64,000 nucleotides of DNA from Escherichia coli (GTDB lineage: Bacteria; Pseudomonadota; Gammaproteobacteria; Enterobacterales; Enterobacteriaceae), in assembly GCF_030013595.1 (NCBI RefSeq), contig NZ_CP122768.1; one strand, given 5' to 3'. Every line of letters starts with the position of its first letter. Within the stretch, counting starts at the first letter, position 1. The position numbers and the translations under genes are program-made. Shown piece after piece: positions 9,287 through 57,385 of this stretch. Below the pieces are notes generated by a model. That model was not told where the DNA came from, made no database searches, and saw nothing but the letters and a program-made list of their open reading frames with translations.

Positions 9287-9292
9287 GGGCTC

Positions 9293-18332: not shown

Positions 18333-18336
18333 GGGA

Positions 18337-22753: not shown

Positions 22754-22768
22754 CGCTGACTCTCCGGA

Positions 22769-35876: not shown

Positions 35877-35886
35877 CAGGTGCTTT

Positions 35887-36174: not shown

Positions 36175-36182
36175 AGGGCGTT

Positions 36183-36538: not shown

Positions 36539-36624
36539 CCGCGCAAATAAGACCCCAGGTTAAATAAGAAAATGTGAAAACAATCCGCATTCGCGGAGGT
36601 ATTCGCACACGCCAAGGAGGCGTA

Positions 36625-37070: not shown

Positions 37071-37211
37071 GCACCTCCAACTGCCGGAAACCACGTCGGG
37101 CTTCAGCAGCTCATCCGGCAGCAAAACAAACTCCATTAATTCCTGTTCCGGGCCTTTCCTGCACCTTGCGGCGGGAGGCCTTCGCACATCTGTAACAAGA
37201 GGATTGCCGCA

Positions 37212-37577: not shown

Positions 37578-37583
37578 ATCACT

Positions 37584-40406: not shown

Positions 40407-40451
40407 AGCGCGCACAAAACAGGCAAAAACGGGATTTCAGAATCCCGTAAA
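40354..40451. repeat. two 25-bp dyad-containing direct repeats straddling the A stop codon, upstream of the parM-like gene
   Basis: AAACGGGACTCACGAATCCCGCAAA (40354..40378) and AAACGGGATTTCAGAATCCCGTAAA (40427..40451); each contains CGGGA-N8-TCCCG; 73-bp centre-to-centre. Confidence 0.6.
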
Positions 40452-40482
40452 CGATTAATTAATCAACATAAGGAAAAGCGAC

Positions 40483-41442: not shown

Positions 41443-41446
41443 ACCA

Positions 41447-41758
41447 ATGACGACACCAACCAGACGGATAAGTTTCTATCTGAAGCCCGCCGCCGTCAAG
41501 AACGAAGGCGAAGCATGCGCCTGGCTGGACAGCCTTACACCAGAAGCCCGCAAAAGCGGCCAACGTGTGGCTTTTCTGGCCGGGCTGGCACTTCTGAAAA
41601 TGAATCCGGCAGAGGCTTACCGACTGGCTGCATGGGCTGACGATGAGGCGTTATCAGTGACACAAACCAGGACAGAACGCCCCGCGTCACAGCCAGTACC
41701 AACCACACAGATAACCAGTCGGATGGCCGGAAATATCAGGGCGTTATTTCCCGAATAA
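41447..41758 (+). CDS. parR: ParR/StbB-like adaptor protein (putative ribbon-helix-helix)
   Basis: 103-aa ORF MTTPTRRISFYLKPAAVKNEGEACAWLDSLTPEARKSGQRVAFLAGLALL...; AAGGAG 7 nt upstream, 4 bp after parM stop; N-terminal pattern resembles R1 ParR. Confidence 0.65.
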   Translation: MTTPTRRISFYLKPAAVKNEGEACAWLDSLTPEARKSGQRVAFLAGLALLKMNPAEAYRLAAWADDEALSVTQTRTERPASQPVPTTQITSRMAGNIRALFPE

Positions 41759-41786
41759 CACAACATCAGGGCGCATCCGCCCTGAT
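41735..41786. repeat. ATCAGGGCG direct repeat plus a 9-bp-stem hairpin at the parR 3' end
   Basis: ATCAGGGCG at 41735..41743 and 41765..41773; inverted copy CGCCCTGAT at 41778..41786 forms a hairpin with a CATC loop. Confidence 0.55.
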
Positions 41787-41821
41787 GACTTTAATCCGGG
41801 AACATAAACAAGGGGGACACA

Positions 41822-42154
41822 ATGCAACACATTGACAGAGAAAAAGCGCAGCGACTGATTGAGCGGATGGAAGCGCTGGCGAAAGAAGAAAATGTCAACA
41901 TCCAAAAAATAGCTGAATGTGGCCAGATAGTTCTTCGTCGTGAAAAAGACCTCAAACAACTGATGTCTGGCGAAACCAGCAAAACATGGACTTCAGGCGA
42001 GGAGACGATTTATTGCAGCTTCTGCAATAAATCTCAGTACGAAGTCACAAAGGTGATTGCCGGACCGTCTGTTTACATCTGCAATGAGTGCGTGGATTTG
42101 TGCAATGAAATTATCAGGAGAGAAGTGACAGACAAAAAGGGAAAAAACGCATGA
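41822..42154 (+). CDS. ClpX N-terminal zinc-binding-domain homolog with N-terminal coiled-coil extension
   Basis: 110-aa ORF; C-terminal ...[40 protein letters not shown] is near-identical in pattern to the E. coli ClpX Cys4 zinc-binding domain ([40 protein letters not shown]); AGGGGG RBS. Confidence 0.8.
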
Positions 42155-42489
42155 ACAGAAAACAAAAACAAGAGTTGAAATACTTTTTACGTAAAGAAAT
42201 TGCCAGGCTTGAAGATGCAGAATCACAATCATCAGAAATTCCGTTCGGAATGGATATCAACGACGCCCGTATGCTCCAGGCATACCGCATAGCTCAGGCT
42301 GCACTACAGGCAAAACCGTCAGATGGACTGGTTAGAGCAGTACGATTCTATGAACTGGTAAAGCGTGAGAATCCGCCAGCCGAAACCGGAGCATGGAAAG
42401 ACGCTGTTGACTGGGTACTCAAAGAGGCTTGTCAGGTTGTAAACACTGGCATCAAAGGAGACCTAGCCCAGCCTGCATCAAAGCTATAG
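42151..42489 (+). CDS. hypothetical protein translationally coupled to the ClpX-domain gene
   Basis: 112-aa [29 protein letters not shown]...; ATG overlaps the upstream stop (ATGA); followed by a strong terminator. Confidence 0.55.
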
Positions 42490-42498
42490 AAATGAGCC

Positions 42499-42526
42499 AA
42501 AACGCCCTCTTCCAGGGCGTTTATTT
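42499..42526 (+). terminator. rho-independent terminator closing the accessory island
   Basis: AAAACGCCCT-CTTCC-AGGGCGTTT followed by ATTTC. Confidence 0.75.
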
Positions 42527-42529
42527 CAA

Positions 42530-42669
42530 TGCACAATAGTGCACAAATTTGCACAATTTTTTTGAACGAATTTTTGCCCTTCCGGCCCGCGTGACAGTTG
42601 GATCCGTCAAGGATCCGTGCGTGCACAAAAAAACGCGCTTTTTCTGCGCGCAGGTGACGGGGGAACAGC
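42530..42669. other. candidate cos/packaging region of the P2-like phage
   Basis: Non-coding interval before portal Q where P2 has cos; three TGCACAA repeats at exact 10-bp phasing (42530, 42540, 42550) plus a fourth at 42622; GGATCCGT at 42600 and 42611; palindrome CTGCGCGCAG 42644..42653; GGTGACGGGGGAACAGC (42653..42669) loosely resembles the P2 cohesive end. Confidence 0.4.
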
Positions 42670-42980
42670 CCGCGTTTCAGGGGGTAAATAGCATTCCCTG
42701 AACGATGTCGCAGAGATACAACAGAATGGCTGTATTTCTCACGCTGAGCGTGAAAAAGATGTGAGGGCTTTTGATTTGATGGGGTGAAAGGTAAGGCCGT
42801 CAAAATCGCACTGAGGCGGCGAGAACATACAGTCAACGCGGTAGGATTGCGTAAGAGTCTGACCGTCGATGGTGGCGATAAACTGGAAGGCGTCGTGAAA
42901 TTATCTGATTGATACAGGAGCTGGAGAGTCGGGGCATAAATTTTTTATGCCCCGGCGAAGCAGCAGACAAGCGAAGCGCG

Positions 42981-44027
42981 TCAGGATGTGGGCTGGGTAT
43001 CTAACAGTGCGTAAGGGTTAAAGCGGATCACCTCTTCGCCAAGCCAGTCATTGATGTGCTTCATGGCCTCCATGACGGGCATCAGCTCGTTAATTGCGTA
43101 AACCCGCGCGGCCTTCTCCACATCACCAAACGCACTTTTTTCACCCGGCATCGCTCCCATCAGTTGCGGCGGAACGCGGTGCGCAGCCAGCACATCATCA
43201 CGGGATGCCGCCTTAACATTCATGAACTCATCCTTTGCGGTGATCTGCTGGAACGGCAAAATTTGCACACCTTCTTTGCCCCCGTTGGGCGCATGAATGA
43301 GCACGTTTTTAAATGCACCACCACCACGCGCACCCTGTAACGTTTCTTTCAGGGAGTCCATGCTTTCGCGGTTTACCTGCGCTGCACCGATGTAGATGAT
43401 GCACCCGGCGTGGGATCCGTTGTCGTAATACAGTTTTCTGAACATGTCCGCCGAATGAGACAGGCTGGCCGAGAGTAATGCGCCAAGATATTCCGGCATG
43501 CCGTAAATTTCCTGGTTAATGTCAGGATTCATCAGGTGACACACTTTGCCTGGGCGAAACTGAAACGCATCCTTGCCATCCTGCACATACCACCATGATT
43601 CAAGATCGCTTCCGCGTCGCATGTATTTCGCCAGGGCGTGCCGTAATTTAAGCGGTTCGCCGAGCATATTGCTTCGAAGCTCAAGGAATGCGTTACCGAA
43701 CACAAACCAGTCCAGCGCCAGCGCCGAGAAATCCTGCCGGGAAAGCAGCGGGTGCGGAATATAGCAGCCGAGCAATACATTGCGCTTAAAGTAAAGCGCA
43801 GACTGATGCCAGGACGTTTGCCGGGCAGCTCTTGCCAGACCGTACCAGTCTACCGGGGTTTCATACCACCGCCCGTTATCAGCACAGTACATATTGTCCA
43901 GCAGGTCATGCCCGGTCAGGCGATAAGGACCATCAAATGTGAATGCACTGAGCGATGATTCTTTCCTGAGCGCATCAGCGAGATCAATGCGTGAACTCAT
44001 GCGCACTTTTTTATTTTTTCTGCTCAT
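42981..44027 (-). CDS. Q: portal protein, P2 gpQ family
   Basis: 348-aa ORF, size and sequence pattern of P2 Q; leftward, upstream of terminase P. Confidence 0.9.
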   Translation of the reverse strand: MSRKNKKVRMSSRIDLADALRKESSLSAFTFDGPYRLTGHDLLDNMYCADNGRWYETPVDWYGLARAARQTSWHQSALYFKRNVLLGCYIPHPLLSRQDFSALALDWFVFGNAFLELRSNMLGEPLKLRHALAKYMRRGSDLESWWYVQDGKDAFQFRPGKVCHLMNPDINQEIYGMPEYLGALLSASLSHSADMFRKLYYDNGSHAGCIIYIGAAQVNRESMDSLKETLQGARGGGAFKNVLIHAPNGGKEGVQILPFQQITAKDEFMNVKAASRDDVLAAHRVPPQLMGAMPGEKSAFGDVEKAARVYAINELMPVMEAMKHINDWLGEEVIRFNPYALLDTQPTS

Positions 44028-45778
44028 CAGAACTCCATAACCGTGAAACGCTCGTTTTCTCCTTCGCCGCCAATTGGTTCGTTAATGACAGCAAGCATGG
44101 TTGCCCACGCAAGGTCGCCGTGGCTGATCCCCCTCGCGCGGTCCGTTTCGTAAGTGATAAAGCCGCCCGGTGTTTTCACCTTACGCACGGCGTTAAAGGC
44201 CGCGACCAGCTCGCGTTCGGCGCGATCGTATTCCCACCGTCCGGCACGCATTATTTGCAGCATTTTCAGTACCAGCGACCGTTTGGATGACAGCGTGAAG
44301 GTGTACGGAATAGCAGCAGGGAAAAACCGCTTCACTATCTGATAAACAGCCTCCCCGTTCCCGCCCGTCACATCAATGCCGATGTGTTCCACGTTGTAGC
44401 GACACGTGAACTCTTCAATGACTCTGGCCTGTTCTTCAAACTCCAGCCCCTGAACGCGTCGCGTCTCCACCGTTCGAAAACGGCCACCAGGAACAGCCGG
44501 AGGAACCACCACGGACACAGCGCCGCTGTCGCCGTTGCCACTGCTGCCGTTTGCGTCATACCCAATCCATACCGGACGATTCCCCATCGGGCGGGGAGCA
44601 AAAGGTTTCCAGTCTTTCCAGTCGTCGTATCCGTCAACACCGCAGCCAATCAGGATATTCAGGTTAAATGCCGATTCCCCTTCGCGAACAAACTCACACA
44701 TATAGAGATTGAGGAACTCGTCTTCGGTGTTTTCATCACGGATTTCGTCAATATCGGTGTGTTTCCAGCCGTGATTAACCACATCTTCCAGCGTGACAAT
44801 TTGCCGCCACGTCCGGTCAGGGCAGATAAGCCCGTTATGCAGCGTTTTCCAGTCCACAGAAAAACGCTGGCGTTTATGCGCGGCCTTTTTCTCGTTCCAG
44901 CGGTCGCCGTTCCAGTAGACGTATGCCTCGTGCGTTTCGGTTGATGGCGTGGAGAAGTAGGTGCGCCGCAGTCCGCTGAGGGTTGCCATAGCGCCAGCCA
45001 CCTTGCGCAGTTCAGCAAAGCGACTGACCCAGAAAAATTCATCAAAATAAAAATTGCCTGTGTAGGACTGTGCCGTCGCAGCAGAAGTACCGAGAAAATG
45101 CAGTTCTGCGCCGTTGGAGAGGATGATTTTATCGCCCCCTTTCAGCTCCACATCAACTTCAGCCGCGGCCTTCTGAATAATGCTTTTAAACTGGAACGCC
45201 TGACGACGCGACGCAGACAAAAAAATCTGGTTACGCTGGTAAGGTTGTGCCACATCGTCACGCAGCGCCATCAGCAGTGCTTCCTGTGCAAAATACCAGG
45301 TCGCCCCAATCTGTCGGGATTTCAGGATCATCCTGTTACGTATCCCGGCTTCACTGCAAAGGGTCAGGGAGTCAAACCAGCCCCGCTGATGCCACTCCAG
45401 CCTGCTGATGATTTTTTCCCGCAGTGCGGCAATCTGCTCCGGCGTGAAATGATTTTTAAGTTTTTTCGCCCGGCCTTTCTTTCCTGTGGCCGTCGCATCC
45501 GGCTGGCCATCATGCAGTTTTTTAAGCTGCCGGGTCAGCAGGTCTATTTCCTTAAAGTCACCACCTGTTTTATTCTGTTTTTCAGTAAGCTGGATGAGGC
45601 GCGCATCGATGGACTGCGTGACACGCTGCACGGGTGGCGTTTCATCCCACTGGTCGCGTTTTTTCCACGCATAAATCGTGTTCGGGTTTATTCCCATCAG
45701 ACGTGATATTTCTGCGGGCGGATAACCCTGCCAGTAAAGTTGCCGCGCACGCTGGCGCACAAAAGCGTCCTGAATCAT
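44027..45778 (-). CDS. P: terminase large (ATPase) subunit, P2 gpP family
   Basis: 583-aa ORF with ...LKSRQIGATWYFAQEAL... Walker A-like and nuclease-domain acidic residues. Confidence 0.92.
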   Translation of the reverse strand: MIQDAFVRQRARQLYWQGYPPAEISRLMGINPNTIYAWKKRDQWDETPPVQRVTQSIDARLIQLTEKQNKTGGDFKEIDLLTRQLKKLHDGQPDATATGKKGRAKKLKNHFTPEQIAALREKIISRLEWHQRGWFDSLTLCSEAGIRNRMILKSRQIGATWYFAQEALLMALRDDVAQPYQRNQIFLSASRRQAFQFKSIIQKAAAEVDVELKGGDKIILSNGAELHFLGTSAATAQSYTGNFYFDEFFWVSRFAELRKVAGAMATLSGLRRTYFSTPSTETHEAYVYWNGDRWNEKKAAHKRQRFSVDWKTLHNGLICPDRTWRQIVTLEDVVNHGWKHTDIDEIRDENTEDEFLNLYMCEFVREGESAFNLNILIGCGVDGYDDWKDWKPFAPRPMGNRPVWIGYDANGSSGNGDSGAVSVVVPPAVPGGRFRTVETRRVQGLEFEEQARVIEEFTCRYNVEHIGIDVTGGNGEAVYQIVKRFFPAAIPYTFTLSSKRSLVLKMLQIMRAGRWEYDRAERELVAAFNAVRKVKTPGGFITYETDRARGISHGDLAWATMLAVINEPIGGEGENERFTVMEF

Positions 45779-45932
45779 TGCTCCCCCTGAGTAATTACAG
45801 GAAGATTACCCGCGCGCGAAACCGTTCTCCTTAACCCCCTGTTCTGGCCGTTTTCTTACAACAAAAGCCCTTTGTATCAGCCTGTTACGCTTTGCCATCA
45901 TGACTGAAGAACCAGTCAGAGGGGCAAAAACT
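45779..45932. promoter_or_regulatory. divergent late promoter region between P and O
   Basis: 154-bp interval between divergent P and O starts, the position of the P2 late promoters; activator boxes not resolved by eye. Confidence 0.45.
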
Positions 45933-46769
45933 ATGGCTAATGAAAAAAAGACATCCCGCAAAAAGTTTCGCGTGGCTGTCTCCGGATCAACTGTTGATGG
46001 CCGTGAAATCAGTCCGGTGCATCTGCGTGAAGCCGCCGAGAACTTCAACCCGGATGTTTACGCTGCCCGCGTGAACGTTGAGCACTATCTCTCGCCATGC
46101 CCGTCAAGCGAATTTTCCGCAATGGGCGATGTCACCGCACTGAGTACGGAAGACATTACGGAAGGTCCGCTGGCCGGACGTACTGCGCTGTATGCAGAAA
46201 TCGAACCGACCGAGCGCATGAAGCAGCTTGTCGCGGACGGCAAGAAAATCTATTCCAGTATCGAACTGCACCCGCAGTTCTCCGTTAACGGGCGCGCCTA
46301 TCTGGTCGGGCTGGCGATGACCGACACCCCGGCAAGCCTGGGCACTGAGCGCCTGAAATTCACGGCACAGCAACGTCAGGCGGTGATGACGTTCAACAGT
46401 GTCCAGGGTGAAGCACCGCTCATTTCCGAAGCCATCGAGTCTGAAATCATCGAAATGGCAGAACAACGCCAGGAAGAAGGCACCCAGTGGTTTAACCGCG
46501 TAATGGGGATTATTGGTCGTGGCCGCAAAGCGGATGACGCCAGTTTCTCCCGTATTCAGGAAGCGGTGGAAGGCGTCGCAACGTCACAGGCCGACATTAT
46601 CGACCGTTTTAATGTGCTGGAAACCCGCCATCAGCAGGACCGCCAGAAAATCACGTCACTGACCACAGAGCTGACAGCACTGAAGGAAAAACTGCGCACG
46701 CAGGACGGCGATCCGCAGAACCGCTTCACCGCAACGGGCGCAGCCTCCGACCAGCTGGCTGACTTCTGA
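45933..46769 (+). CDS. O: capsid scaffolding protein, P2 gpO family
   Basis: Start MANEKKTSRKKFRVAVSGSTVDGREISPVHLREAAENF aligns with the P2 O N-terminus; GAGGGG 9 nt upstream. Confidence 0.85.
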   Translation: MANEKKTSRKKFRVAVSGSTVDGREISPVHLREAAENFNPDVYAARVNVEHYLSPCPSSEFSAMGDVTALSTEDITEGPLAGRTALYAEIEPTERMKQLVADGKKIYSSIELHPQFSVNGRAYLVGLAMTDTPASLGTERLKFTAQQRQAVMTFNSVQGEAPLISEAIESEIIEMAEQRQEEGTQWFNRVMGIIGRGRKADDASFSRIQEAVEGVATSQADIIDRFNVLETRHQQDRQKITSLTTELTALKEKLRTQDGDPQNRFTATGAASDQLADF

Positions 46770-46791
46770 TAAGACAAAGGAGCAAATTTTT

Positions 46792-47844
46792 ATGAATCTG
46801 GTGATGTCAGATATTACCCGCAACAAGCTGGGTTGCTATATGGCGCAGCAGGCGTCGCTTAACAATATCCCGGTATCTGCACTGGTATCGCGATTTACCG
46901 TAGAACCCTCGGTGCAGCAGCGTTTTGAAAACGCAGTAAAGGAGAGCACTGAATTTACAAAAAAAATTAACGTGTTCGGTGTGACTGACCAGAAAGGCGA
47001 AAAAATCCTCCTTGACACCACCGGGCCGATTGCGCGCACGAATACCAGTTATGACGGCACAAAACGCCGTAACCCGAATAACGTGGTTGATCTGAAAAAC
47101 CGCAAATACCAGTGCGAACAGGTGAACTACGACACGTTTATTTCGTATCCGCAGCTTGATGCCTGGGCGGCACACCCTGATTTTCAGTCCCGCGTCAGCA
47201 CACAGATTGCCCGGCAGGTGGCGCTTGACCGCATCATGATCGGTTTCAACGGCACGTCTCACGCAGATGAGTCCAACTTCAGCACTAACAAGCTGCTTCA
47301 GGACGTTAACGTGGGATGGCTGGAGCACATCAGAACCGACGCCAGCGAGCGCGTTATGAATGATGTAACGCTGACCTCCCGCAACATGGACAACACCGTG
47401 GCGCACGCGGGTAAATATGCGAACGCTGATGCACTGGTACAGGACGCGCGCTCATCCCTGCTGGATGAATGGCACAAGGAAGCTGACGACCTCGTGGTGA
47501 TTATGGGGCGCAACCTGTTTAACTCGCTGCGTCTGCCCGTGCTGAACAGCATCAGCGGCCAGAATCCCAATGCGGAATTACTTGCCGGACAGCTCATCCT
47601 GTCATCGCGCGCCATTGGCGGGCTGGATGTATTCCTTGCGCCGTTCTTCCCGGATGCAACGATGCTGATCACCTCGTTCAACAACCTGTCAATTTACTGG
47701 CAGAAAGGAACAATGCGTCGCCTGATGAAAGACGAGCCGGAATACAACCGCATCGCCACCTACCAGTCCATCAATGACGCTTATGTCGTTGAAGACTATG
47801 GCAAGTGCGCGATGGTCACTGGCCTGAAGTTCGCCGACAGCTAA
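46792..47844 (+). CDS. N: major capsid protein, P2 gpN family
   Basis: 350-aa ORF; ...FTVEPSV...MIGFNGT...NKLLQDVNVGWL...YVVEDYG... match the P2 N pattern. Confidence 0.92.
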   Translation: MNLVMSDITRNKLGCYMAQQASLNNIPVSALVSRFTVEPSVQQRFENAVKESTEFTKKINVFGVTDQKGEKILLDTTGPIARTNTSYDGTKRRNPNNVVDLKNRKYQCEQVNYDTFISYPQLDAWAAHPDFQSRVSTQIARQVALDRIMIGFNGTSHADESNFSTNKLLQDVNVGWLEHIRTDASERVMNDVTLTSRNMDNTVAHAGKYANADALVQDARSSLLDEWHKEADDLVVIMGRNLFNSLRLPVLNSISGQNPNAELLAGQLILSSRAIGGLDVFLAPFFPDATMLITSFNNLSIYWQKGTMRRLMKDEPEYNRIATYQSINDAYVVEDYGKCAMVTGLKFADS

Positions 47845-47889
47845 TCACCTCACGGCGGGCATCATGCCCGCCTGTAACGGAGAGAAAAA

Positions 47890-48690
47890 ATGATTACTCC
47901 TGCACAGCAACACTGGCAGAACGTGATGGCACAGCGCGCAGGCCGGGCGAATGAAGGCGTGGACCACGCCGCGCGTACCGCGCATGAAGAGGTGCTGTAT
48001 CGTCTGCGTCTGGCACAGGCCCGGCTTAAGGGCGTACAGGCCAGAAGCGCGAAAGCCGCCATCAAAAAAGAGTTATTGCCGGACTTTTCCGGCTGGATTG
48101 AGGGAACGCTGGAGGCTGACGGCGGGCAGCAGGATGAAGTGATTGCCACGCTGATGGTCTGGGCGATTGACTGCGGCGATCTTCCGCTGGCGCTGCGTAT
48201 TGGTGCATATGTGGTCCGTCACAACCTCATCATGCCGGATAACTTTGGACGTACTGCTGCCACGGTACTGACCGAAGAAATCTGTAATCCGGTACTGACG
48301 CAGGCCGGGACGGATGCCGACGCGGATTTGTCCGCCTTTATCGAACCACTGGACACCCTCCGGGAGATTGTCACCGACCAGGACATGCCGGACGAAGTGC
48401 GCGCCAAATTATGCAAAGCGTGCGCCTTTGCCCGCCGTGGCCTGAGTGATACGGACAGCATGGCCCTGTCACTGAAGCTGCTGCGCGAAGCAATGCACCT
48501 GAACCCGAACGCAGGTGTGAAACGCGAGATTGCAACCCTTTCCCGCGCCCTGAAAAAAGCCGATTCCGCAGCCGCACCAGAAGACGCCAGCGCACAGCAG
48601 ACGCAGGACGAAAGCAGCAAAAGTAAAAAGACAACGCGGAAGCCTGCAACACGAAAAACCACCGCGACGCAGAAGGCGAAGCGCGGTTAA
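47890..48690 (+). CDS. M: terminase small (endonuclease) subunit, P2 gpM family
   Basis: 266-aa ORF MITPAQQHWQNVMAQRAGRANEG... with basic C-terminal tail; position after N. Confidence 0.88.
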   Translation: MITPAQQHWQNVMAQRAGRANEGVDHAARTAHEEVLYRLRLAQARLKGVQARSAKAAIKKELLPDFSGWIEGTLEADGGQQDEVIATLMVWAIDCGDLPLALRIGAYVVRHNLIMPDNFGRTAATVLTEEICNPVLTQAGTDADADLSAFIEPLDTLREIVTDQDMPDEVRAKLCKACAFARRGLSDTDSMALSLKLLREAMHLNPNAGVKREIATLSRALKKADSAAAPEDASAQQTQDESSKSKKTTRKPATRKTTATQKAKRG

Positions 48691-48783
48691 CGACTGACCC
48701 CGTCAGCGGGCGGCGTGCGCGGTGTTCCGGTTTGACTCCGTGACCGTTTACACCGCGCACCCACCGCCCGATTTTTTTCAGGA

Positions 48784-49287
48784 GTGAACCCCATGAGTAT
48801 GGTTGCCAGAACTGAACCCAGACCCGCAGAGGACGACATCACCGATACCGATGATGGCGATACCCGCATTTCAGCGGGTGCATTCTGGCCGGATATTGTG
48901 CTGCGCGAGCTGCGTCTGGCGGTACGACTGCCGGGCCGCGTGACCACCTCCCGCCTGCTACATACTGCCACCGGGGCTGTGGCACACGTTACCCGCGAGC
49001 TGGAAGCATGGCAGCAGGAACAGCAGGCAGCTGGCCATCAGACGCTGGCCGATGTTCCGGCACCCGTAATTAACGGAGAAAGCGTCAATCTCTGGCACTG
49101 GCGCAATGCTGTTTATACCGCCACGCGCGCCCTGATTCTGGAGCGTTACCGCGATGCGGACACAACGGATAAGGGCGACCGCCGGGCGGACGCACTGGAT
49201 ATACAGACATCGGATTTGTGGCGCGATGTGAGCTGGGCCATCTCTGACATTCTGCGCCGCCCGCGAATTTTTGCGGAGCTGTGCTGA
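48784..49287 (+). CDS. L: head completion protein, P2 gpL family
   Basis: 167-aa ORF at the P2 L position. Confidence 0.85.
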   Translation: MNPMSMVARTEPRPAEDDITDTDDGDTRISAGAFWPDIVLRELRLAVRLPGRVTTSRLLHTATGAVAHVTRELEAWQQEQQAAGHQTLADVPAPVINGESVNLWHWRNAVYTATRALILERYRDADTTDKGDRRADALDIQTSDLWRDVSWAISDILRRPRIFAELC

Positions 49288-49487
49288 TGAAAGTGAAGGC
49301 ACTGGAAGGCGACACCGTGGATTCGCTCTGTTTCCGGTACTACGGCACGACGCAGGGCGTCACCGAAAAGGTGCTGGATGCCAACCCCGGACTCTGTCAG
49401 CAGGTATTTCTGGACGCCGGGCAGGACGTGGAGATGCCGGAGCCGGAGAAGAAGAAACGAGAAATGATTCAGTTGTGGGGGGAGTAG
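49287..49487 (+). CDS. X: tail protein X, P2 gpX family (LysM-like)
   Basis: 66-aa ORF from ATG 49287 (MKVKALEGDTVDSLCFRYYGTTQGV...) overlapping the L stop (ATGA). Confidence 0.8.
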   Translation: MKVKALEGDTVDSLCFRYYGTTQGVTEKVLDANPGLCQQVFLDAGQDVEMPEPEKKKREMIQLWGE

Positions 49488-49489
49488 CA

Positions 49490-49813
49490 GTGAGCACCAT
49501 TCAAACAGGGATCACAGAGCAGGTTATTGCGTGGCTCTTTGACCACCTGCCAACGGTGTATGCAGTAGGCGCGGCGGTCAGCATTTCCGCGCTGATGAGT
49601 CTTTATGACGGACGAACACTGGTTCAGACCGTAACGGGATCGCTGGCGTGCGGCGTTCTTGCCATGGCCGTGGCCGGGTCGTTGCGCTTCTTCGGGTTTC
49701 CTGAAGATGCCGTGACGTTTATCGGCGCATCAATCGGTTTTATGGGCGCAGAGAAAGCACGCGACAAGGTTATTGCGGCCTTTAATCGCAGGGTGAAGGG
49801 GAAGGACGAATGA
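49490..49813 (+). CDS. holin (putative, GTG start)
   Basis: 107-aa ORF with three hydrophobic segments and charged C-terminus, 2 nt after X stop, GGGGGAG RBS; at the P2 Y position. Confidence 0.65.
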   Translation: MSTIQTGITEQVIAWLFDHLPTVYAVGAAVSISALMSLYDGRTLVQTVTGSLACGVLAMAVAGSLRFFGFPEDAVTFIGASIGFMGAEKARDKVIAAFNRRVKGKDE

Positions 49814-50202
49814 GCAACACATTTAAATTCAGCAGTCGGAGCGAAAAGAATTTGCAGGGCGTAAATCCTGATCTGGTGAAAGTGACCCGACGGGCACTGG
49901 AAATTTCGGAAGTGGATTTTGGTATCACCGAAGGGTTGCGCAGCCGTTACCGCCAGAAGCAACTTGTGGCCACAGGTAAGAGCCAGACCATGAACAGCCG
50001 CCACCTTACGGGACATGCCGTGGATGTTGTGGCTTATATCGGCAGCCAGGTGTCATGGGAATGGCCGCTGTACGAAAAAATCGCAGCAGCATTCAGACAG
50101 GCCAGCCGGGAGCTGAATATTCCGGTGGAATGGGGCGGCGACTGGAAGACCCTGAAAGACGGACCGCATTTTCAGTTACCACACGGAGCCTATCCGGCAT
50201 GA
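49810..50202 (+). CDS. endolysin, peptidase M15-like
   Basis: 130-aa ORF with ...SRHLTGHAVDVV... metal-binding motif typical of M15 phage endopeptidases. Confidence 0.8.
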   Translation: MSNTFKFSSRSEKNLQGVNPDLVKVTRRALEISEVDFGITEGLRSRYRQKQLVATGKSQTMNSRHLTGHAVDVVAYIGSQVSWEWPLYEKIAAAFRQASRELNIPVEWGGDWKTLKDGPHFQLPHGAYPA

Positions 50203-50606
50203 AGCTCTGGCCCACGCTGGGTGTCGCTTTCCTTCTGATTGCCGCATGGGGAACATCCATGCGTCTGTCATGGTCGCTGGGCCGGGAGAACGCCAGAAAC
50301 GAAGCGCAGGCCAGCACCCTGAAACGTACCGCCGACACCCTGAATATCATCAGCGCCGGGGTACAGGATATGCAGCAGGTGCTGGCGCAACTCCGCGTGG
50401 AAAATCAGCAACGCAATCAGGACGGAGAGGTAAGACGTGAACAGCTACGCAACGATATTGCAAAAGATGAATGCGCCCACGCTTTGCCTGACGCTCGTTT
50501 TACTGACAGGCTGCGCAGGCACGCAGAACGCGCCACTGCCAGCGCCGTCAGTCCGGCTTATACCGCAGACGCTGACCATACCGGTAACGCCGCCCCCCTT
50601 CCCTGA
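50199..50606 (+). CDS. i-spanin (Rz/LysB-like inner-membrane spanin)
   Basis: 135-aa ORF from ATG 50199 with N-terminal TM helix (LWPTLGVAFLLIAAWG) then coiled-coil region. Confidence 0.7.
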   Translation: MKLWPTLGVAFLLIAAWGTSMRLSWSLGRENARNEAQASTLKRTADTLNIISAGVQDMQQVLAQLRVENQQRNQDGEVRREQLRNDIAKDECAHALPDARFTDRLRRHAERATASAVSPAYTADADHTGNAAPLP

Positions 50607-50757
50607 TACTCCCACATGGGGAAATCTCGGTATATGGGGCGACCGCCTTCTGGATGCACTGGAAACCTGTAACGCGGATAAACGGGCCATTGAATTACTG
50701 GAACAGCGCAGGCTGCAACGACTGAACAACGAGGACAACAACCATGCTGAAAACTGA
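50437..50757 (+). CDS. o-spanin (Rz1/LysC-like outer-membrane lipoprotein), start uncertain
   Basis: Overlaps the i-spanin in the +1 frame; lipobox LLTGC after a signal peptide; proline-rich mature region. Confidence 0.65.
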   Translation: MNSYATILQKMNAPTLCLTLVLLTGCAGTQNAPLPAPSVRLIPQTLTIPVTPPPFPDTPTWGNLGIWGDRLLDALETCNADKRAIELLEQRRLQRLNNEDNNHAEN

Positions 50758-51211
50758 TTCCCTGCGTGAAGCCATGACCCGTTCATGCCGATGGTGTCAG
50801 GCCAACCCGGAAAAATTCACCATTTTCGTGGAGAGCGGCAACATTGAAACGACCGGAGAAACGCCCTCGTTTGTTTACCGCTATCAGATGGTGATGTTTG
50901 TCATGGATTACGCCGGGGAGCTGGACGACCTCACGCTGCCGCTGCTGGCGTGGTTATCCGAAAATCAGCCACAGTTGTTGCTCAACCCTGAGCGTAATCA
51001 GGACATCAAATTCTCCGCCGTTATCAATGACGATGACAGCGCCGATCTCCTGTTTACGCTCCCCCTGCGGGAACGCGTTCGCATCACGCGCAGCAGTCAG
51101 GGGACACCGCAGGCAGAACACCTGCCGGAGCCAAAACCCCGCCTGCCATCACCCGAAGGCGACTGGTCGCATGTATTCCAGGATGTGACGTGGGGTGAAA
51201 GCGATGGATAA
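50744..51211 (+). CDS. R: tail completion protein, P2 gpR family
   Basis: 155-aa ORF, same length as P2 R, at the expected position. Confidence 0.85.
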   Translation: MLKTDSLREAMTRSCRWCQANPEKFTIFVESGNIETTGETPSFVYRYQMVMFVMDYAGELDDLTLPLLAWLSENQPQLLLNPERNQDIKFSAVINDDDSADLLFTLPLRERVRITRSSQGTPQAEHLPEPKPRLPSPEGDWSHVFQDVTWGESDG

Positions 51212-51839
51212 GGCATTCACCCGCGTGGATGAAACCTTTGAGGCCATCCGCGACAGCCTGAATCAGCAGGCCATCAATAACATCGCCAGAAAGCTGGCAC
51301 AGGATTTACGCCGCGCCCAGCAGGCGCGTATCCGGTCACAGAAAGCGCCGGACGGGACCGCGTGGACACCACGCAGACGCCGCGTAACCCGGATACAGGA
51401 GCGCATTCGCTTTATCTGGAATAACGAAGCACGCACGCTGAAAAACTGGCATCACGACACGGGGAAATACGGGCGAACCATTACCGGGTGGGATGAGGAT
51501 AAAAACAATATCCGCACGTTTTACCGGGATGACATCGACCGTTTTCTGGAAATACGCACCCGGCGCATCAACCAGGACAGCACAAAGCGCGTCCCCATGT
51601 TCGTAAAACTGCGCACCGCCCGCTACCTGAAAGCCCGTGCAGATGCTTCCGGTGTGACGGTGGGTTACAGCGGCGTGGCCGCACGTATTGCCCGCGTTCA
51701 TCAGTTCGGTGAGCGCGATCAGGTTGCGCCGGGCATTTTCACCGATTACCCGGTACGTGAGCTGCTGGGTATCAGCCAGGCAGATGAGCGCCTGATTTAT
51801 AACACGGTGCTGGGCCGGATTGCGGAGGCTGTACGGTGA
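51195..51839 (+). CDS. S: tail completion/virion morphogenesis protein, P2 gpS-like
   Basis: 214-aa ORF between R and V; longer than P2 S, assignment by position. Confidence 0.7.
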   Translation: MKAMDKAFTRVDETFEAIRDSLNQQAINNIARKLAQDLRRAQQARIRSQKAPDGTAWTPRRRRVTRIQERIRFIWNNEARTLKNWHHDTGKYGRTITGWDEDKNNIRTFYRDDIDRFLEIRTRRINQDSTKRVPMFVKLRTARYLKARADASGVTVGYSGVAARIARVHQFGERDQVAPGIFTDYPVRELLGISQADERLIYNTVLGRIAEAVR

Positions 51840-52417
51840 GCGCAGAACTCATGCGACTGCTGAGCAATATCATCCGCACCGGGATCATCTCTGAAGTTGA
51901 TGAGAAGTCCTGGCGCGTGCGCGTTCGCAGCGGCGAACTGGAAACAGGCTGGTTGCGCTGGAACACCACGCGCGCGGGAGCCTTCAATGTATGGCTGCCG
52001 CCATCACCAGGCGAACAGGTGGTAATTGCCTGCATTGGCGGCAACCCGGAAACCGCCATGATAATTGGCAGCCTGTGGAGTGATGCCAGTCCGGCCCCCG
52101 GCAAAAGCCTGAAAGAAATCGTGGTCAGCGCGCCGGATGGCGCGGCGTTCCGCTACGACGCAGACGCTGGCGCACTGAGCGCCAGCGGCATGAAAACAGC
52201 CACCCTGCAGGCATCCGTCAGCGTGACACTGGATACGCCCGTCGTGGAATGCACAAACCTTCTGAGAACAGCGACGCTTGACGTCACAAAAGGGGGAAAG
52301 ATGAGCGGCAATATCACGCACAGCGGCGGCGATTTCACCTCAAACGGCATCACAGTGCATACGCATAAGCACGGTGGCGTTAAAGGTGGCAGCGATTCGA
52401 CAGGAGGCCCGCAGTGA
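51836..52417 (+). CDS. V: baseplate spike protein, P2 gpV family
   Basis: 193-aa ORF with OB-fold-like N-terminus and Gly-rich C-terminal tip region. Confidence 0.88.
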   Translation: MSAELMRLLSNIIRTGIISEVDEKSWRVRVRSGELETGWLRWNTTRAGAFNVWLPPSPGEQVVIACIGGNPETAMIIGSLWSDASPAPGKSLKEIVVSAPDGAAFRYDADAGALSASGMKTATLQASVSVTLDTPVVECTNLLRTATLDVTKGGKMSGNITHSGGDFTSNGITVHTHKHGGVKGGSDSTGGPQ

Positions 52418-52764
52418 CAACCCGCTACACAGGAATGAACCCGGACGGAACGGGAAACCTGAACGATATGGAGCACCTGAAACAGTCAGTCAGGGACATC
52501 CTGACCACCCCGCTGGCCAGCCGGGTTATGCGACGGGAATATGGCAGCCTTGTGCCTGATTTGATTGACGAACCCATGAATAACACCACGCGTCTGCAAT
52601 GCATGAGTGCTGCCGTGATTGCGCTGACACGATGGGAACCCCGCATTGCCCTGGACGCTATCGACGTTGTCTGGAAGGCAGGAGGCCGCGCCGGGGTGAC
52701 GCTGTCGGGCACTGTCATGCAGACCATGCAGAATGTTGAATTAACCATCACGCTGAGGGAGTAA
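52414..52764 (+). CDS. W: baseplate wedge protein, P2 gpW family
   Basis: 116-aa ORF, GPW/gp25 lysozyme-like fold pattern; ATGA overlap with V. Confidence 0.88.
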   Translation: MTTRYTGMNPDGTGNLNDMEHLKQSVRDILTTPLASRVMRREYGSLVPDLIDEPMNNTTRLQCMSAAVIALTRWEPRIALDAIDVVWKAGGRAGVTLSGTVMQTMQNVELTITLRE

Positions 52765-52767
52765 ATC

Positions 52768-53664
52768 ATGCCTGCCGTTGACCTTTCACAGTTACCGGAC
52801 CCCGCCATCATCGCGGAGCCTGACTTTGAGGCAATTCTGGCTGACACAAAGGCCATGATGATTGCGTCCTATCCCGCCGAACAGCGTGAAGCCGTTTCCG
52901 CCGCGCTGGAGCTGGAATCGGAACCCCTTAACGTTATCGCTCAAACCATGTCGTTTCGTGAAATGCTGTTACGCCAGCGGGTCAATGAGGGTGCACGCGC
53001 CTGCATGCTAAGCCACAGCGCCGGGACAGACCTGGACAACCTCGCGGGCAATATGAACACAAAGCGCCTGGTTATCACTCCGGCAACGGATACCACCGAC
53101 GCAGTGATGGAAAGTGACACCTCGCTGAGACTACGGGCGCAACGGGCATATGACGGTCTGAGTGTTGCTGGCCCGTCAGGTGCATACGAGTATTTTGCAC
53201 GCAGCGCCAGCGGTCTGGTACGCGATGCGCGGGCCATCAGCCCGTCTCCGGCCAACGTGACGGTTTCCATCCTGTCCACTGAGGGCGACGGCACAGCAAC
53301 GGAGGCATTGCTTAATACCGTTCGCGCCGTTCTGAATGCAGAGGATACCCGCCCGGTGGCCGACCGCCTGACCGTACAGAGTGCCAGAATCGTGACATGG
53401 CGGCTGAATGCAAAACTGTACTTTTACCCCGGCCCGGAATCCGAACCTATTCTGGCCGCGGCGGAATCGTCGTTCAGGAAGTGGCTGTCTGAGCAGGGGC
53501 TTATCGGTCAGGATGTGGCGTTGTCAGCCATTGCTGCCGCACTGCATGTGCACGGTGTGCAACGCGTGGAGATAATCGAACCCACACAAAATATGGCCAT
53601 CAGCGACATACAGGCGGCGCGCTGTGAGTCATTCACCATCAGCGAAGGTGGGCGTAATGAGTAA
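52768..53664 (+). CDS. J: baseplate protein, P2 gpJ family
   Basis: 298-aa ORF at the P2 J position. Confidence 0.9.
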   Translation: MPAVDLSQLPDPAIIAEPDFEAILADTKAMMIASYPAEQREAVSAALELESEPLNVIAQTMSFREMLLRQRVNEGARACMLSHSAGTDLDNLAGNMNTKRLVITPATDTTDAVMESDTSLRLRAQRAYDGLSVAGPSGAYEYFARSASGLVRDARAISPSPANVTVSILSTEGDGTATEALLNTVRAVLNAEDTRPVADRLTVQSARIVTWRLNAKLYFYPGPESEPILAAAESSFRKWLSEQGLIGQDVALSAIAAALHVHGVQRVEIIEPTQNMAISDIQAARCESFTISEGGRNE

Positions 53665-54187
53665 TTCACTGTTACCGCCATCAGCCAGCAATTTCATGCG
53701 TTGTGCCGAAGCTGTCGGAACGCGCATTACAGACATTCCGGTAGACCTCAACACGCTGTGGTCGCCGGACACCTGCCCGGTGCATCTGCTGCCTTATCTC
53801 GCCTGGGCATTTTCCGTTGACCGCTGGGATCGCAACTGGCCGGAAGAGACAAAGCGACAGGTGATTCGTGATGCATGGCTGATACACCGACACAAAGGGA
53901 CCATCAGCGCACTGCGCCGGGCCATTGAGCCGCTGGGATACCTCATTCGTGTGTCTGAGTGGTGGGAGTTCGGCGGAGAACCGGGAACATTTACCGTTGA
54001 AGTCGGCACGCTGGACAGTGGCGTGACGGAGGAAATGTATCTGGAAATGGAGCGGTTGATTGCTGATGCCCGCCCGGTCAGCCGCCACATGACAGGGCTG
54101 AATATCATTCAGGAGATCCCGGGGGATATTTTCGCGGCGGCAGCAACTTACGACGGTGAAGTCATTACCATTTATCCGGACGATTAA
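53657..54187 (+). CDS. I: baseplate/tail protein, P2 gpI family
   Basis: Start MSNSLLPPSASNF... aligns with the P2 I N-terminus; ...CPVHLLPYLAWAFSVDRWD...ADARPVSRHM...NIIQEIPGDIFAA... conserved. Confidence 0.85.
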   Translation: MSNSLLPPSASNFMRCAEAVGTRITDIPVDLNTLWSPDTCPVHLLPYLAWAFSVDRWDRNWPEETKRQVIRDAWLIHRHKGTISALRRAIEPLGYLIRVSEWWEFGGEPGTFTVEVGTLDSGVTEEMYLEMERLIADARPVSRHMTGLNIIQEIPGDIFAAAATYDGEVITIYPDD

Positions 54188-54189
54188 GC

Positions 54190-56781
54190 ATGAGTACCAC
54201 AACACGAAAATTTAAAACCATTATCACTGATACTGGTGCCAAAAAATTAGCTCAGGCAGCCGCGCCAGATGGTAATCCTGTCCGCCTGACTCACATGGCC
54301 GTGGGCGACGGTGGCGGCACGTTGCCCACACCAGACAGTAAGCAGACCCGTCTGGTGCATGAGGTGTGGCGACATACTGTTAATCGCGTCATCCTGGACG
54401 CAACACATCAGAACCGCATTATTGCGGAGCTGGTTATTCCTCCTGAAACGGGCGGATTCTGGATCCGGGAAATTGGTGTATTTGATGAGCACGGCGATTT
54501 GATCGCGGTGGGCAATACTGCGGAAAGTTACAAGCCAGCCGTTGCCGAAGGATCCGGACGTGTACAAACATTTCGCACCATTCTGACCGTATCCAGCACT
54601 GCCACCGTGGCGCTTACCGTGGATAACACCATGGTTATGGCCACAGTGGATTACGTGAATGACAAACTGAAAGAACATGAACAGTCACGACGTCACCCGG
54701 ACGCCTCGCTGACCGCAAAAGGCTTTGTTCAACTCAGTAGCGCCACCAACAGCACGTCTGAAACACTGGCCGCAACGCCGAAAGCGGTAAAGGCCGCGTA
54801 TGACCTTGCTAACGGGAAATATACCGCACAGGACGCCACCATAGCGCGAAAAGGCCTTGTCCAGCTCAGTAGTGCCACCAACAGCACGTCTGAAACGCTC
54901 GCCGCAACGCCGAAAGCGGTAAAGGCAGCATATGACCTTGCTAACGGGAAATACACTGCACAGGACGCCACCACAACGCGAAAAGGCCTTGTTCAGCTCA
55001 GTAGCGCCACCAACAGTGATTCTGAAACGCTTGCGGCAACGCCAAAGGCGGTAAAGGCAGCATATGACCTTGCTAACGGGAAATACACTGCACAGGACGC
55101 CACCACAGCGCGAAAAGGTCTTGTCCAGCTCAGTAGCGCCACCAACAGCACGTCTGAAGCATTGGCCGCAACACCGAAAGCGGTAAAGGCCGCGTATGAC
55201 CTTGCTAACGGGAAATACACTGCACAGGACGCCACCACAGCGCGAAAAGGTCTTGTCCAGCTCAGTAGCGTCACCAACAGCGATTCTGAAACGCTTGCGG
55301 CAACGCCAAAGGCGGTAAAGGCCGCGTATAACCTTGCTAACGGGAAATACACTGCACAGGATGCCACTACAGCGCGAAAAGGTCTTGTCCAGCTCAGTAG
55401 CGTCACCAACAGTGATTCTGAAACGCTGGCCGCAACATCAAAAGCGGTGAAGTCTGCCTATGACAATGCTGAAAAACGCCTTCAGAAAGATCAGAACGGT
55501 GCGGATATTCCGGGAAAGGATACCTTCACGAAAAATATCGGTGCCTGTCGTGCTTATAGCGGCGCTTTGAGCACTGAAGCCGGAAACTGGACAACCGCTC
55601 AGTTTATTGAATGGCTGGATTCCCGTGGTGCATTTAATCATCCGTACTGGATGTGCAAAGGCTCATGGTCATATGCAAATAACAAAATCATTACGGATAC
55701 CGGATGTGGTGATATCCACCTGGCTGGTTGTGTCGTCGAGGTCATGGGAACTAAATCTGCAATCACTATCCGAGTAACCACGCCGACAACATCAAGTGGT
55801 GGCGGTACAACCAGCGCACAATTCACTTACATTAATCATGGGGGCGGCTACTTCCCCGGCTGGCGTCGTGACTGGAATCGTCAGGGCGACTCAATGACCG
55901 GAACGATTAATCAGGATGGCGGAAGCCAGAATGCCTATATGTCTACGGCCTTATGTTCAGGCACCAGAGGCGGCAAAAAATATCTCAGAAAGTTTCGTGG
56001 TGGAGAAGGAGATACTATCTGGCATGAAACAGTACAGGGCGGGGTAATTCGCTGGGCGACAGGAAACTATGACGCTCAGGAAGAATTATCACTCAGCTCC
56101 GCTTATGGTCTCCGTTCAAGAGGTGAGATTACATCACTCAGTGCTAATGGTCTGCGCATTGCTTATGGCAATTATGGATTCTTTATCAGGAATGATGGCG
56201 GCAGCACATATTTAATGCTGACGGCCTCTGGCGATAAATTTGGGACATGGAACGGCTTAAGACCGCTGACTATCAATAACGCCAATGGCGGAGTGTCAAT
56301 GGGGCATGGCCTGAGTGTTACAGGTGATATTGTCTCAAGTACCAAAGTACGTGCCGGTAGCGGGAAAAAGTTCACGGTCAGCAGCAGCAATACATCCACG
56401 AAGGAAGCCGCATTCAATTTGTGGGGAAACGCAAGTCGTCCGGTGGTGGCTGAATTAGGTGATGATGCAGGCTGGCATTTTTACAGTCAGAGAAATACAG
56501 ATAACAGCATCACTTTTGCTGTTAACGGGCAGGTATCACCATCTAACTATGGCAACTTTGATTCACGCTATGTCCGGGATATTAGACTTGGTGGCGCGTC
56601 ATCCTATAAACCAGCAAATAACGGGACAACATGGACGCATCAGGCTCCATCTGGTTGCGCATATACCGGGATTATCGTTCAGGATACAGGCTCAAACTCT
56701 GCCGATAATATTGGTGGTGTTTATTACAGACCAATTCAAAAAAATATTAATGGTACATGGTATAACGTATCGAGTGTTTGA
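54190..56781 (+). CDS. H: tail fibre protein, P2 gpH-like, with internal tandem repeats
   Basis: 863-aa ORF; N-terminal 170 aa like P2 H; five and a half tandem copies of a 44-aa unit; Gly-rich distal domain. Confidence 0.9.
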   Translation: MSTTTRKFKTIITDTGAKKLAQAAAPDGNPVRLTHMAVGDGGGTLPTPDSKQTRLVHEVWRHTVNRVILDATHQNRIIAELVIPPETGGFWIREIGVFDEHGDLIAVGNTAESYKPAVAEGSGRVQTFRTILTVSSTATVALTVDNTMVMATVDYVNDKLKEHEQSRRHPDASLTAKGFVQLSSATNSTSETLAATPKAVKAAYDLANGKYTAQDATIARKGLVQLSSATNSTSETLAATPKAVKAAYDLANGKYTAQDATTTRKGLVQLSSATNSDSETLAATPKAVKAAYDLANGKYTAQDATTARKGLVQLSSATNSTSEALAATPKAVKAAYDLANGKYTAQDATTARKGLVQLSSVTNSDSETLAATPKAVKAAYNLANGKYTAQDATTARKGLVQLSSVTNSDSETLAATSKAVKSAYDNAEKRLQKDQNGADIPGKDTFTKNIGACRAYSGALSTEAGNWTTAQFIEWLDSRGAFNHPYWMCKGSWSYANNKIITDTGCGDIHLAGCVVEVMGTKSAITIRVTTPTTSSGGGTTSAQFTYINHGGGYFPGWRRDWNRQGDSMTGTINQDGGSQNAYMSTALCSGTRGGKKYLRKFRGGEGDTIWHETVQGGVIRWATGNYDAQEELSLSSAYGLRSRGEITSLSANGLRIAYGNYGFFIRNDGGSTYLMLTASGDKFGTWNGLRPLTINNANGGVSMGHGLSVTGDIVSSTKVRAGSGKKFTVSSSNTSTKEAAFNLWGNASRPVVAELGDDAGWHFYSQRNTDNSITFAVNGQVSPSNYGNFDSRYVRDIRLGGASSYKPANNGTTWTHQAPSGCAYTGIIVQDTGSNSADNIGGVYYRPIQKNINGTWYNVSSV
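54718..55455 (+). repeat. tandem array of a 132-bp (44-codon) unit inside tail fibre gene H
   Basis: Protein repeats KGLVQLSSATNSTSETLAATPKAVKAAYDLANGKYTAQDATTAR x5 plus a diverged partial sixth; nucleotide copies over 90 percent identical. Confidence 0.85.
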
Positions 56782-57317
56782 TTATGATGCATTTAAAAAA
56801 TATAAAACCGGGCAATCCAAAAACAAAAGAACAGTACCTGTTAACTAAAAACTCCGGCGTTGTCTGGTTATTCGCTGAAGATGGTAAAAACTGGTATGAG
56901 GAACAAAAGAACTTTCAGCCAGACACCATAAAGATTGCATATGATGAAAATAATGTCATATGCGACGTGCAAACGGATGTAACTGCAATTTGCCCGGAAG
57001 GAAAAAGTGTTGTCGAGTTGCCTAATATTACAGCAAACCGACGCGCTGATATTTCAGGTAACTGGATGTTTAAAGATGGCTCAGTCATTAAACGTGTGTA
57101 TACCGAAGAAGAGCAACGCTTGCAGGCTGAAAACCAGAAACAAAGGTTATTACAGCAGGCCAGAGAAAAAACGCAGTTCTGGCAGACCCAGCTTGCATTA
57201 GGGATTATCAGTGATTCAGATAAGCAACAACTGATGCGCTGGATGCGGTACGTGCAACAAGTTGAGACCACTGATACCACTGAATTACCCGTTACGTTCC
57301 CTGATCAACCAGAATAA
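56778..57317 (+). CDS. G: tail fibre assembly protein, P2 gpG-like
   Basis: 179-aa ORF overlapping the H stop; C-terminal ...QQLMRWMRYVQQVETTDTTELPVTFPDQP tail fibre chaperone pattern. Confidence 0.85.
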   Translation: MIMMHLKNIKPGNPKTKEQYLLTKNSGVVWLFAEDGKNWYEEQKNFQPDTIKIAYDENNVICDVQTDVTAICPEGKSVVELPNITANRRADISGNWMFKDGSVIKRVYTEEEQRLQAENQKQRLLQQAREKTQFWQTQLALGIISDSDKQQLMRWMRYVQQVETTDTTELPVTFPDQPE

Positions 57318-57320
57318 ACG

Positions 57321-57345
57321 AAAGGCCCGAATATCGGGCCTTATC
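57321..57345. terminator. bidirectional terminator hairpin between convergent G and U
   Basis: AAAGGCCCGA-ATAT-CGGGCCTT with an A-rich 5' flank and T-rich 3' flank. Confidence 0.6.
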
Positions 57346-57385
57346 GTTATTTCTGTTTATCTAACTATTTGTGATTTGCGTTAAA

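Follow-up and report, generated by a model that had tools for sequence, protein, structure and literature searches.

An M15-endolysin lysis cassette with overlapped spanin genes in a P88-type prophage of Escherichia coli

The window analysed here comprises 64,000 nucleotides of the Escherichia coli contig NZ_CP122768.1 (assembly GCF_030013595.1). Between homologues of the phage P2 tail genes X and R it contains four tightly packed genes on the plus strand, encoding a holin, an endolysin of the M15 peptidase family, an inner-membrane spanin (i-spanin) and an outer-membrane spanin (o-spanin) (Table 1). We read them as the lysis cassette of a P88-type prophage, very probably acting by the canonical holin-endolysin-spanin pathway. 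A first-pass annotation of this DNA had placed a holin, a 130-residue M15 peptidase, an i-spanin and a lipobox-bearing o-spanin at these positions; the open reading frames and their profile matches bear this out, with E-values that rule out chance reading frames for all four proteins. The GTG start codon of the holin lies 2 nt past the gpX stop, behind a GGGGGAG Shine-Dalgarno sequence. ATGA overlaps couple the holin stop to the endolysin start and the endolysin stop to the i-spanin start, while the end of the o-spanin gene overlaps the start of R by 14 nt. The gene order on both flanks is P2-like: L, X, cassette, R, S, V, W, J.

Table 1. Features of the lysis cassette and its immediate flanks, in window coordinates.
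Feature	Position	Strand	Evidence
Tail protein X (gpX homologue), left flank	49287..49487	+	Pfam PF05489 Phage_tail_X, E 1.6e-20; 48% BLASTP identity to P2 X
Holin, 107 aa, GTG start	49490..49813	+	Pfam PF05106, phrog_126
Endolysin, 130 aa, ATG start	49810..50202	+	Pfam PF13539, phrog_465
i-spanin, 135 aa, ATG start	50199..50606	+	phrog_214 (Rz-like spanin)
Shine-Dalgarno-like GGAGAGGT	50424..50431	+	Read from sequence; 5 nt before GTG 50437
o-spanin, +1 frame of i-spanin	50437..50757	+	Pfam PF23793 LysC, phrog_3001, phrog_456
Tail completion protein R, right flank	50744..51211	+	Pfam PF06891 P2_Phage_GpR, E 4.6e-40; 38% BLASTP identity to P2 R

The holin fits the Pfam family Phage_holin_3_1 ('Lysis protein S') along its length, with residues 7-101 covering positions 5-99 of the 99-position PF05106 profile (E 1.1e-19; 71.1 bits, cut-off 23.8). 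It also matches phrog_126 (E 2.6e-35), the PHROG that contains lambda S (E 1.1e-40), and direct BLASTP aligns it with lambda S at 23% identity (E 4.6e-6). On hydropathy, uncharged segments stand out clearly at residues 19-39 and 43-65, with a third, short one at 74-87, in a pattern like that of lambda S; the C-terminal tail, RDK...RRVKGKDE, is highly charged. The three-helix topology proposed at first pass is made plausible mainly by the full-length family match, the third segment being less clear than the other two. The N-terminus, VSTIQTG, lacks basic residues and shows no second start among its opening codons, and the dual-start (holin/antiholin) motif is absent. The family match points to a class I holin of the lambda S family with a single start codon.

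The endolysin had been claimed to be an M15 peptidase with an HxxxxxxD...H motif, standing in place of the P2 K lysozyme. Profile searches of the four reading frames agree: the 130-residue protein falls in the M15 peptidase family (PF13539, Peptidase_M15_4, E 8e-12, 46 bits, cut-off 25; phrog_465, E 5e-77), and the zinc-ligand motif is present as H65-x6-D72 ... H120. No NCBIfam model matched the endolysin or either of the spanins. Without gaps, and from residue 5 onwards, it aligns to Serratia ChiX (PDB 5opz, 61.9% identity, E 2.5e-48), to LysECD7 (8q2g, 'peptidoglycan L-alanyl-D-glutamate endopeptidase', 62.4%, E 2.7e-46) and to 23ri (63.2%, E 2.1e-48), with R44, H65, D72, D117 and H120 corresponding to R47, H68, D75, D120 and H123 of ChiX. 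The T5 endolysin (PDB 2mxz) is matched at E 8.8e-23, and the endolysin of Salmonella phage 9NA is 77% identical. Experiments on ChiX have shown that it binds zinc, cleaves the L-Ala-D-Glu bond and requires D120, its D120A variant being inactive (PMC5778951). Given about 62% identity to enzymes of demonstrated or annotated activity, the window protein is predicted to be a zinc L-alanyl-D-glutamate endopeptidase. It belongs to a large family, matched at E<=1e-10 by at least 7984 clusters at 90% identity, with homologues in 1326 phage records across T4-like, T5-like and siphoviral genomes. The endolysin contains no hydrophobic segment, and neither a signal sequence nor a signal-anchor-release (SAR) sequence, suggesting a cytoplasmic enzyme that depends on the holes made by the holin.

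A pinholin acting together with a SAR endolysin, which would be exported by Sec and activated when the membrane is depolarised, is another route to lysis. It is common among phages of Gram-negative hosts, and hydropathy by itself gives the holin just two strong helices. However, the endolysin lacks any hydrophobic N-terminal segment and is collinear from residue 5 with soluble, crystallised enzymes, while the holin fits the full lambda S profile, which describes a large-hole class I family. We consider a pinholin and SAR endolysin very improbable here.

The i-spanin belongs to the Rz-like spanins of phrog_214 (E 2.9e-40). Its N-terminus carries a hydrophobic anchor (residues about 3-21), beyond which lies a charged, helical periplasmic domain containing a single cysteine; the N-terminal transmembrane domain and the Rz-like family match together give the type II inner-membrane pattern. 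For the o-spanin, the Pfam LysC family (PF23793) is matched at E 7.8e-13 (48.6 bits, cut-off 27), phrog_3001 at E 3e-25 and phrog_456 at E 2.6e-15. Its signal peptide ends in the lipobox L-L-T-G-C, with the cysteine codon at 50512-50514, and the mature part is proline-rich. The residue at position +2 after the lipobox cysteine is alanine, not aspartate, which by the Lol sorting rule indicates targeting to the outer membrane. Confident placing of both spanins came only from the profile libraries and not from BLASTP to lambda or P2: against lambda Rz the i-spanin gave a marginal alignment (23% identity, E 4e-4), and against lambda Rz1 the o-spanin gave no significant match.

The o-spanin could be 106 residues long, from GTG 50437, or 96, from ATG 50467. 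The GTG codon is the likelier start, as GGAGAGGT lies 5 nt upstream; this start also adds a lysine to the n-region of the signal peptide, which the ATG version lacks. The start is offset by 238 nt (3 x 79 + 1) from that of the i-spanin, so that the o-spanin, with its LLTGC lipobox, is indeed read in the +1 frame, as first described. The same description had the o-spanin gene nested within that of the i-spanin, and in this it was mistaken: the o-spanin stop (50757) lies 151 nt beyond the i-spanin stop (50606), making the pair overlapped and not embedded, as in P2. In the terms of Summer et al. 2007, partly overlapping spanin genes reportedly form the 'overlapped' class, of which P2 lysB/lysC is said to be the type example. 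Lambda Rz/Rz1 is of the embedded type, and the P2 coordinates show lysB/lysC to be overlapped.

Public annotation of the o-spanin is defective in a recurrent way. In identical E. coli prophages, the RefSeq/PGAP 'lysC' is a 65-residue coding sequence whose first codon is an ATA (window 50560, 'IPQTLTIPV...'; L004:4361-4558). Because this codon lies downstream of the lipobox, the signal peptide and the LLTGC motif are cut off. Four phage records were inspected, none of which annotates both spanin genes: those of P88, Shae_phiSM and Chuche give the i-spanin only, and that of PhiR44_2 gives only the o-spanin reading frame, from GTG 50437 and labelled hypothetical. The Chuche record also shortens the holin to 72 residues. 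If the error is as general as these records suggest, spanin censuses based on annotation would undercount the o-spanin of this very common prophage.

Over 17,963 bp, window positions 37097-55058 are 98.3% identical in nucleotide sequence to positions 5470-23430 of phage P88, and further blocks of 92-93% identity to P88 lie on either side. Together, these matches delimit a P88-type prophage that extends from around 35.5 kb as far as the window's end, and by nucleotide identity it is assigned to Xuanwuvirus (Peduoviridae), as phage P88 (NC_026014) type. Mitomycin C induction of E. coli K88 released P88, which gave lytic progeny and has been described as P2-like, with a module for lysis (PMC5285337). 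Megablast of the 1.6-kb interval 49200-50800, which contains the cassette, retrieved 16 phage records at 95-99.5% identity, including those of 500465-2 (99.5%), P88 (98.3%), Chuche, Xuanwuvirus P884B11 and PhiR44_2. The interval was found in 1101 of 5426 complete E. coli genomes, with coverage of at least 80% in 1007, and is 100% identical in several chromosomes of porcine enterotoxigenic E. coli. Genomes of E. coli already annotate the cassette as holin, M15 family metallopeptidase, DUF2570 protein and LysC. The cassette is an ordinary, already known lysis module of a common, sequenced prophage type. As the normal module of a prophage type present in about one-fifth of complete E. coli genomes, with components from well-studied families of solved structure, it has little discovery value. 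Its practical value is modest and lies in the gene-by-gene mosaicism that it illustrates, in the o-spanin annotation error that it brings to light and in the phage relative of ChiX that it supplies.

Elsewhere the prophage departs from P88. The integrase/immunity end of P88 (1-2088) has no megablast match in the window, and P88 3579-5469 is absent (window side 35574-37097). The tail-fibre/invertase region of P88 (23431-27588) is replaced in the window (54714-57375). Window positions 54714-55322 match P88 23086-23430 three times, which suggests repeated C-terminal segments of the tail fibre. At 9158-9245 (+), far from the prophage, there is a tRNA-Ser(tga) gene.

No sigma-70-like promoter was found in the region 48700-52500. 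The sole plus-strand terminator-like site in this region is a weak match within the holin gene, and terminator-like sites are rarer than in shuffled sequence; near the cassette, a search for RNA elements, promoters and terminators gave nothing credible. The lack of a promoter and the near lack of terminators fit a single late transcript, and transcription of the cassette within a late L-X-...-R-S operon is the best explanation. Further downstream (51195-52417), the gpS homologue is longer than in P2 (214 residues, against 150) and its stop codon overlaps the start of gpV. What P2 has between S and V, namely its terminator, orf30 and the separate promoter region of the V operon, is absent here. 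ARAGORN called a 90-nt tRNA-Leu(cag) at 52123-52212 (-), inside the baseplate gpV reading frame (51836-52417); Rfam gave no tRNA match at E<=1, and the call is probably a false positive.

The case for the canonical pathway is made by the families to which the four proteins belong, the catalytic residues of the endolysin, the lipobox, the gene order and overlaps, and the identity with an inducible lytic phage, all of them observed directly. By this mechanism, the 107-residue lambda S-family holin would build up in the inner membrane and form large holes at a set time. Through these holes the 130-residue cytoplasmic endopeptidase, which has no export signal, would leave the cytoplasm and cut the peptide stems off the murein glycan. 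Once the murein is lost, the i-spanin in the inner membrane and the o-spanin, a lipoprotein of the outer membrane, would span the periplasm and disrupt the outer membrane. The order of events, the size of the holes, the cleavage specificity and the timing of lysis are taken from characterised homologues, the dynamics coming from work on lambda and P2.

Several points weigh against this interpretation. The NCBIfam equivalog model TIGR01594 (holin_lambda) gives the holin 53.9 bits, about 1 bit below its cut-off of 55.05, a marginal miss that would make the protein a member of the lambda S family but not an equivalog of lambda S. Its third helix is short on hydropathy alone (14 uncharged residues). 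The i-spanin scores 21.5 bits against Pfam DUF2570, under the gathering cut-off of 26.6. Neither a dual-start antiholin nor a LysA-like protein is present to account for the timing of lysis. We found no experiment on these particular genes, and the paper on P88 (PMC5285337) contains no gene-by-gene analysis of lysis. Finally, ChiX, one of the closest solved homologues of the endolysin, serves non-lytic secretion, indicating that this type of enzyme can be put to other uses.

The last point invites the possibility that the cassette is a secretion system of the 'type 10' kind, like ChiWXYZ of Serratia marcescens, and does not serve phage lysis. Beyond the 61.9% identity of ChiX to the endolysin, ChiW is likewise a lambda S-family (holin-3) protein with a single start and three predicted transmembrane domains, and two further products of chiWXYZ are spanin-like (PMC4259817). 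Set against this, ChiX is described as a genuine bacterial gene outside any prophage (PMC5778951), its locus being devoted to chitin metabolism (PMC4259817), whereas the window genes lie inside the late morphogenetic operon of a prophage that is 98.3% identical to an inducible lytic phage, in tight coupling with tail genes X and R; nor do any cargo genes adjoin the cassette. We give a secretory role very little credence. The cassette does show that the secretion endopeptidase ChiX has a relative in a natural phage setting. The combined proposition that the P88-type cassette is the phage-borne counterpart, and perhaps the source, of the ChiWXYZ operon, and that its o-spanin is systematically mis-annotated in public records, is possible but on balance unlikely. 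On that reading, the lack of a recognisable timing regulator would imply triggering that departs from the lambda and P2 paradigms. A Serratia protein of 75% identity, followed as a way to the ChiWXYZ locus, was rejected, its locus proving to be a lambdoid prophage.

From P2, the cassette had been said to differ. A direct alignment of the DNA says little on this: of the L-to-S interval (48700-51900), which includes the X-to-R interval, the sole match to P2 is 34 bp inside R. The cassette is not identical to that of P2, but the flanks are equally devoid of DNA similarity, and since nucleotide alignment is uninformative at the distance of P2, protein and profile comparisons were used instead. The holin (PF05106, phrog_126) and P2 Y (PF04550, phrog_175) have no similarity, nor do the endolysin (phrog_465) and P2 K (phrog_90). 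A BLASTP search of the cassette for homologues of Y, K and lysA gave no similarity at E<=10 beyond noise, and the Pfam and PHROG families differ. There is no counterpart of P2 lysA (phrog_162), and no reading frame between the endolysin and the i-spanin that could hold one. The o-spanin, in contrast, aligns with P2 LysC by BLASTP (28% identity, E 2.6e-5), has PF23793 and phrog_456 in common with it, and places its lipobox cysteine on the position of LysC Cys21 in the profile. With P2 LysB the i-spanin gives nothing by BLASTP, only weak reciprocal cross-hits between PHROGs (window protein to phrog_89, 2.7e-4; P2 LysB to phrog_214, 2e-4). The claimed difference is thus real for the holin, the endolysin and the missing lysA, but the spanin layout and the LysC family are P2-like. 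With its o-spanin in the LysC family of P2, the cassette as a whole is not of a foreign kind.

A stronger version of the claim made the cassette a modular replacement, in which the whole Y-K-lysA-lysB-lysC block of a P2 genome would recently have been exchanged as one unit for a foreign cassette. The P2-like gene order on both sides (L and X; R, S, V, W and J) is what such an event would leave behind, as are a holin and an endolysin non-homologous to Y and K and the absence of lysA. But protein identity to P2 in the flanks is just 36% for L, 48% for X, 38% for R and 26% for S, so that the backbone has diverged no less than the cassette has; the o-spanin belongs to the LysC family of P2 and the spanin genes are arranged as in P2; the cassette is the majority state throughout a genus; and the exchanges documented here concern single genes. 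Replacement of the block is largely refuted and we regard it as improbable. The remoteness of the flanks indicates not P2 with a swapped block but another genus, one that has lysis genes of its own and normally carries this cassette. The difference from P2 is best explained by divergence at the genus level together with gene-by-gene mosaicism.

Such mosaicism is seen directly in Citrobacter phage Shae_phiSM. Its sequence is 97% identical to the window up to position 49790 and again from 50195, and in place of the 404-bp M15 segment (window 49791-50194) it carries a 615-bp gene with GH108 and PG_binding_3 domains (L003:2092-2706). The breakpoints are clean, one falling where the holin gene ends and the other 4 nt ahead of the i-spanin start. 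Among complete E. coli genomes, 32 have the GH108 allele at this position and 1007 the M15 allele. With the two alleles in an otherwise about 97% identical context, this is a clean case of mosaicism in a lysis cassette. A second mosaic is a lambdoid prophage of Serratia sp. P2ACOL2 (CP033162; L009:5655-6930), where genes of the same families in the same order (holin_3_1, M15_4, DUF2570, LysC) lie between a Q-like antiterminator gene and the Nu1/gpA terminase genes, with gpW and portal genes also downstream. Its endolysin is 75% identical to that of the window, its holin 27% and its o-spanin 26%. The LysC reading frame called there also seems short at the N-terminus. M15 endolysins are, in addition, spread over unrelated phage types, an illustration that the gene for the enzyme can travel without its cassette neighbours. 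Taking these three lines together, sequence comparison indicates that modularity is real at the level of the single gene and that exchange proceeds gene by gene.

The GH108 allele also bears on whether the M15 protein is the endolysin at all. It might instead be a virion-associated murein hydrolase that assists DNA injection, with the true endolysin encoded elsewhere: its gene does lie among tail genes, with X upstream and R downstream, and phrog_1768 shows that M15 domains also occur inside very large phage proteins. Yet the gene sits in the exact slot of P2 K, between holin and spanins and translationally coupled; its product is a single-domain protein of 130 residues, like the endolysins of T5 and ECD7; sister prophages hold a GH108 endolysin in the same slot; and the annotation of P88 shows no other muralytic gene. 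A virion role is, on this evidence, highly unlikely, and the M15 protein is best regarded as the endolysin of the cassette.

Of the known systems, the cassette is closest to that of P88 and other Xuanwuvirus-type phages (NC_026014 gp30-gp32; also 500465-2, P884B11, Chuche and PhiR44_2), which have the same genes in the same order and the same position between X and R. It is essentially the same cassette, from which the public records differ by incomplete annotation, the o-spanin being missing or truncated and the holin, in one record, shortened. The Y-K-lysA-lysB-lysC cassette of P2 occupies the same slot between X and R and shares the overlapped layout of i-spanin and o-spanin genes, the overlap of the o-spanin end with R and an o-spanin of the LysC family. 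P2 K, however, is a muramidase-type enzyme like lambda R, whereas the window endolysin is a peptidase, and P2 has lysA and a PF04550 holin where the window has no lysA and a PF05106 holin.

Lambda S-R-Rz-Rz1 has a holin of the same family (phrog_126, PF05106) and the same length, 107 residues, and the same order of holin, soluble endolysin and two-component spanin. It differs in its Met-Lys-Met dual start, its transglycosylase and its embedded spanins; the window cassette has a single start, a peptidase and overlapped spanins that belong to other PHROGs. The endolysin itself resembles T5 Lys (2mxz), LysECD7 (8q2g), 23ri and the 9NA endolysin in fold family, size and motifs, although these single-domain M15 endolysins come from unrelated phage types (T4-like phages, T5-like phages and siphoviruses). 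In Serratia marcescens ChiWXYZ, where ChiX conserves the zinc ligands, the catalytic aspartate and the substrate arginine of the window endolysin, there are four cistrons, as in the window cassette, the likeness extending, for ChiW, ChiY and ChiZ, to the described type of protein. That operon is a chromosomal one for chitin utilisation, in which secretion takes place without overt lysis, whereas the window genes lie in the late operon of a prophage.

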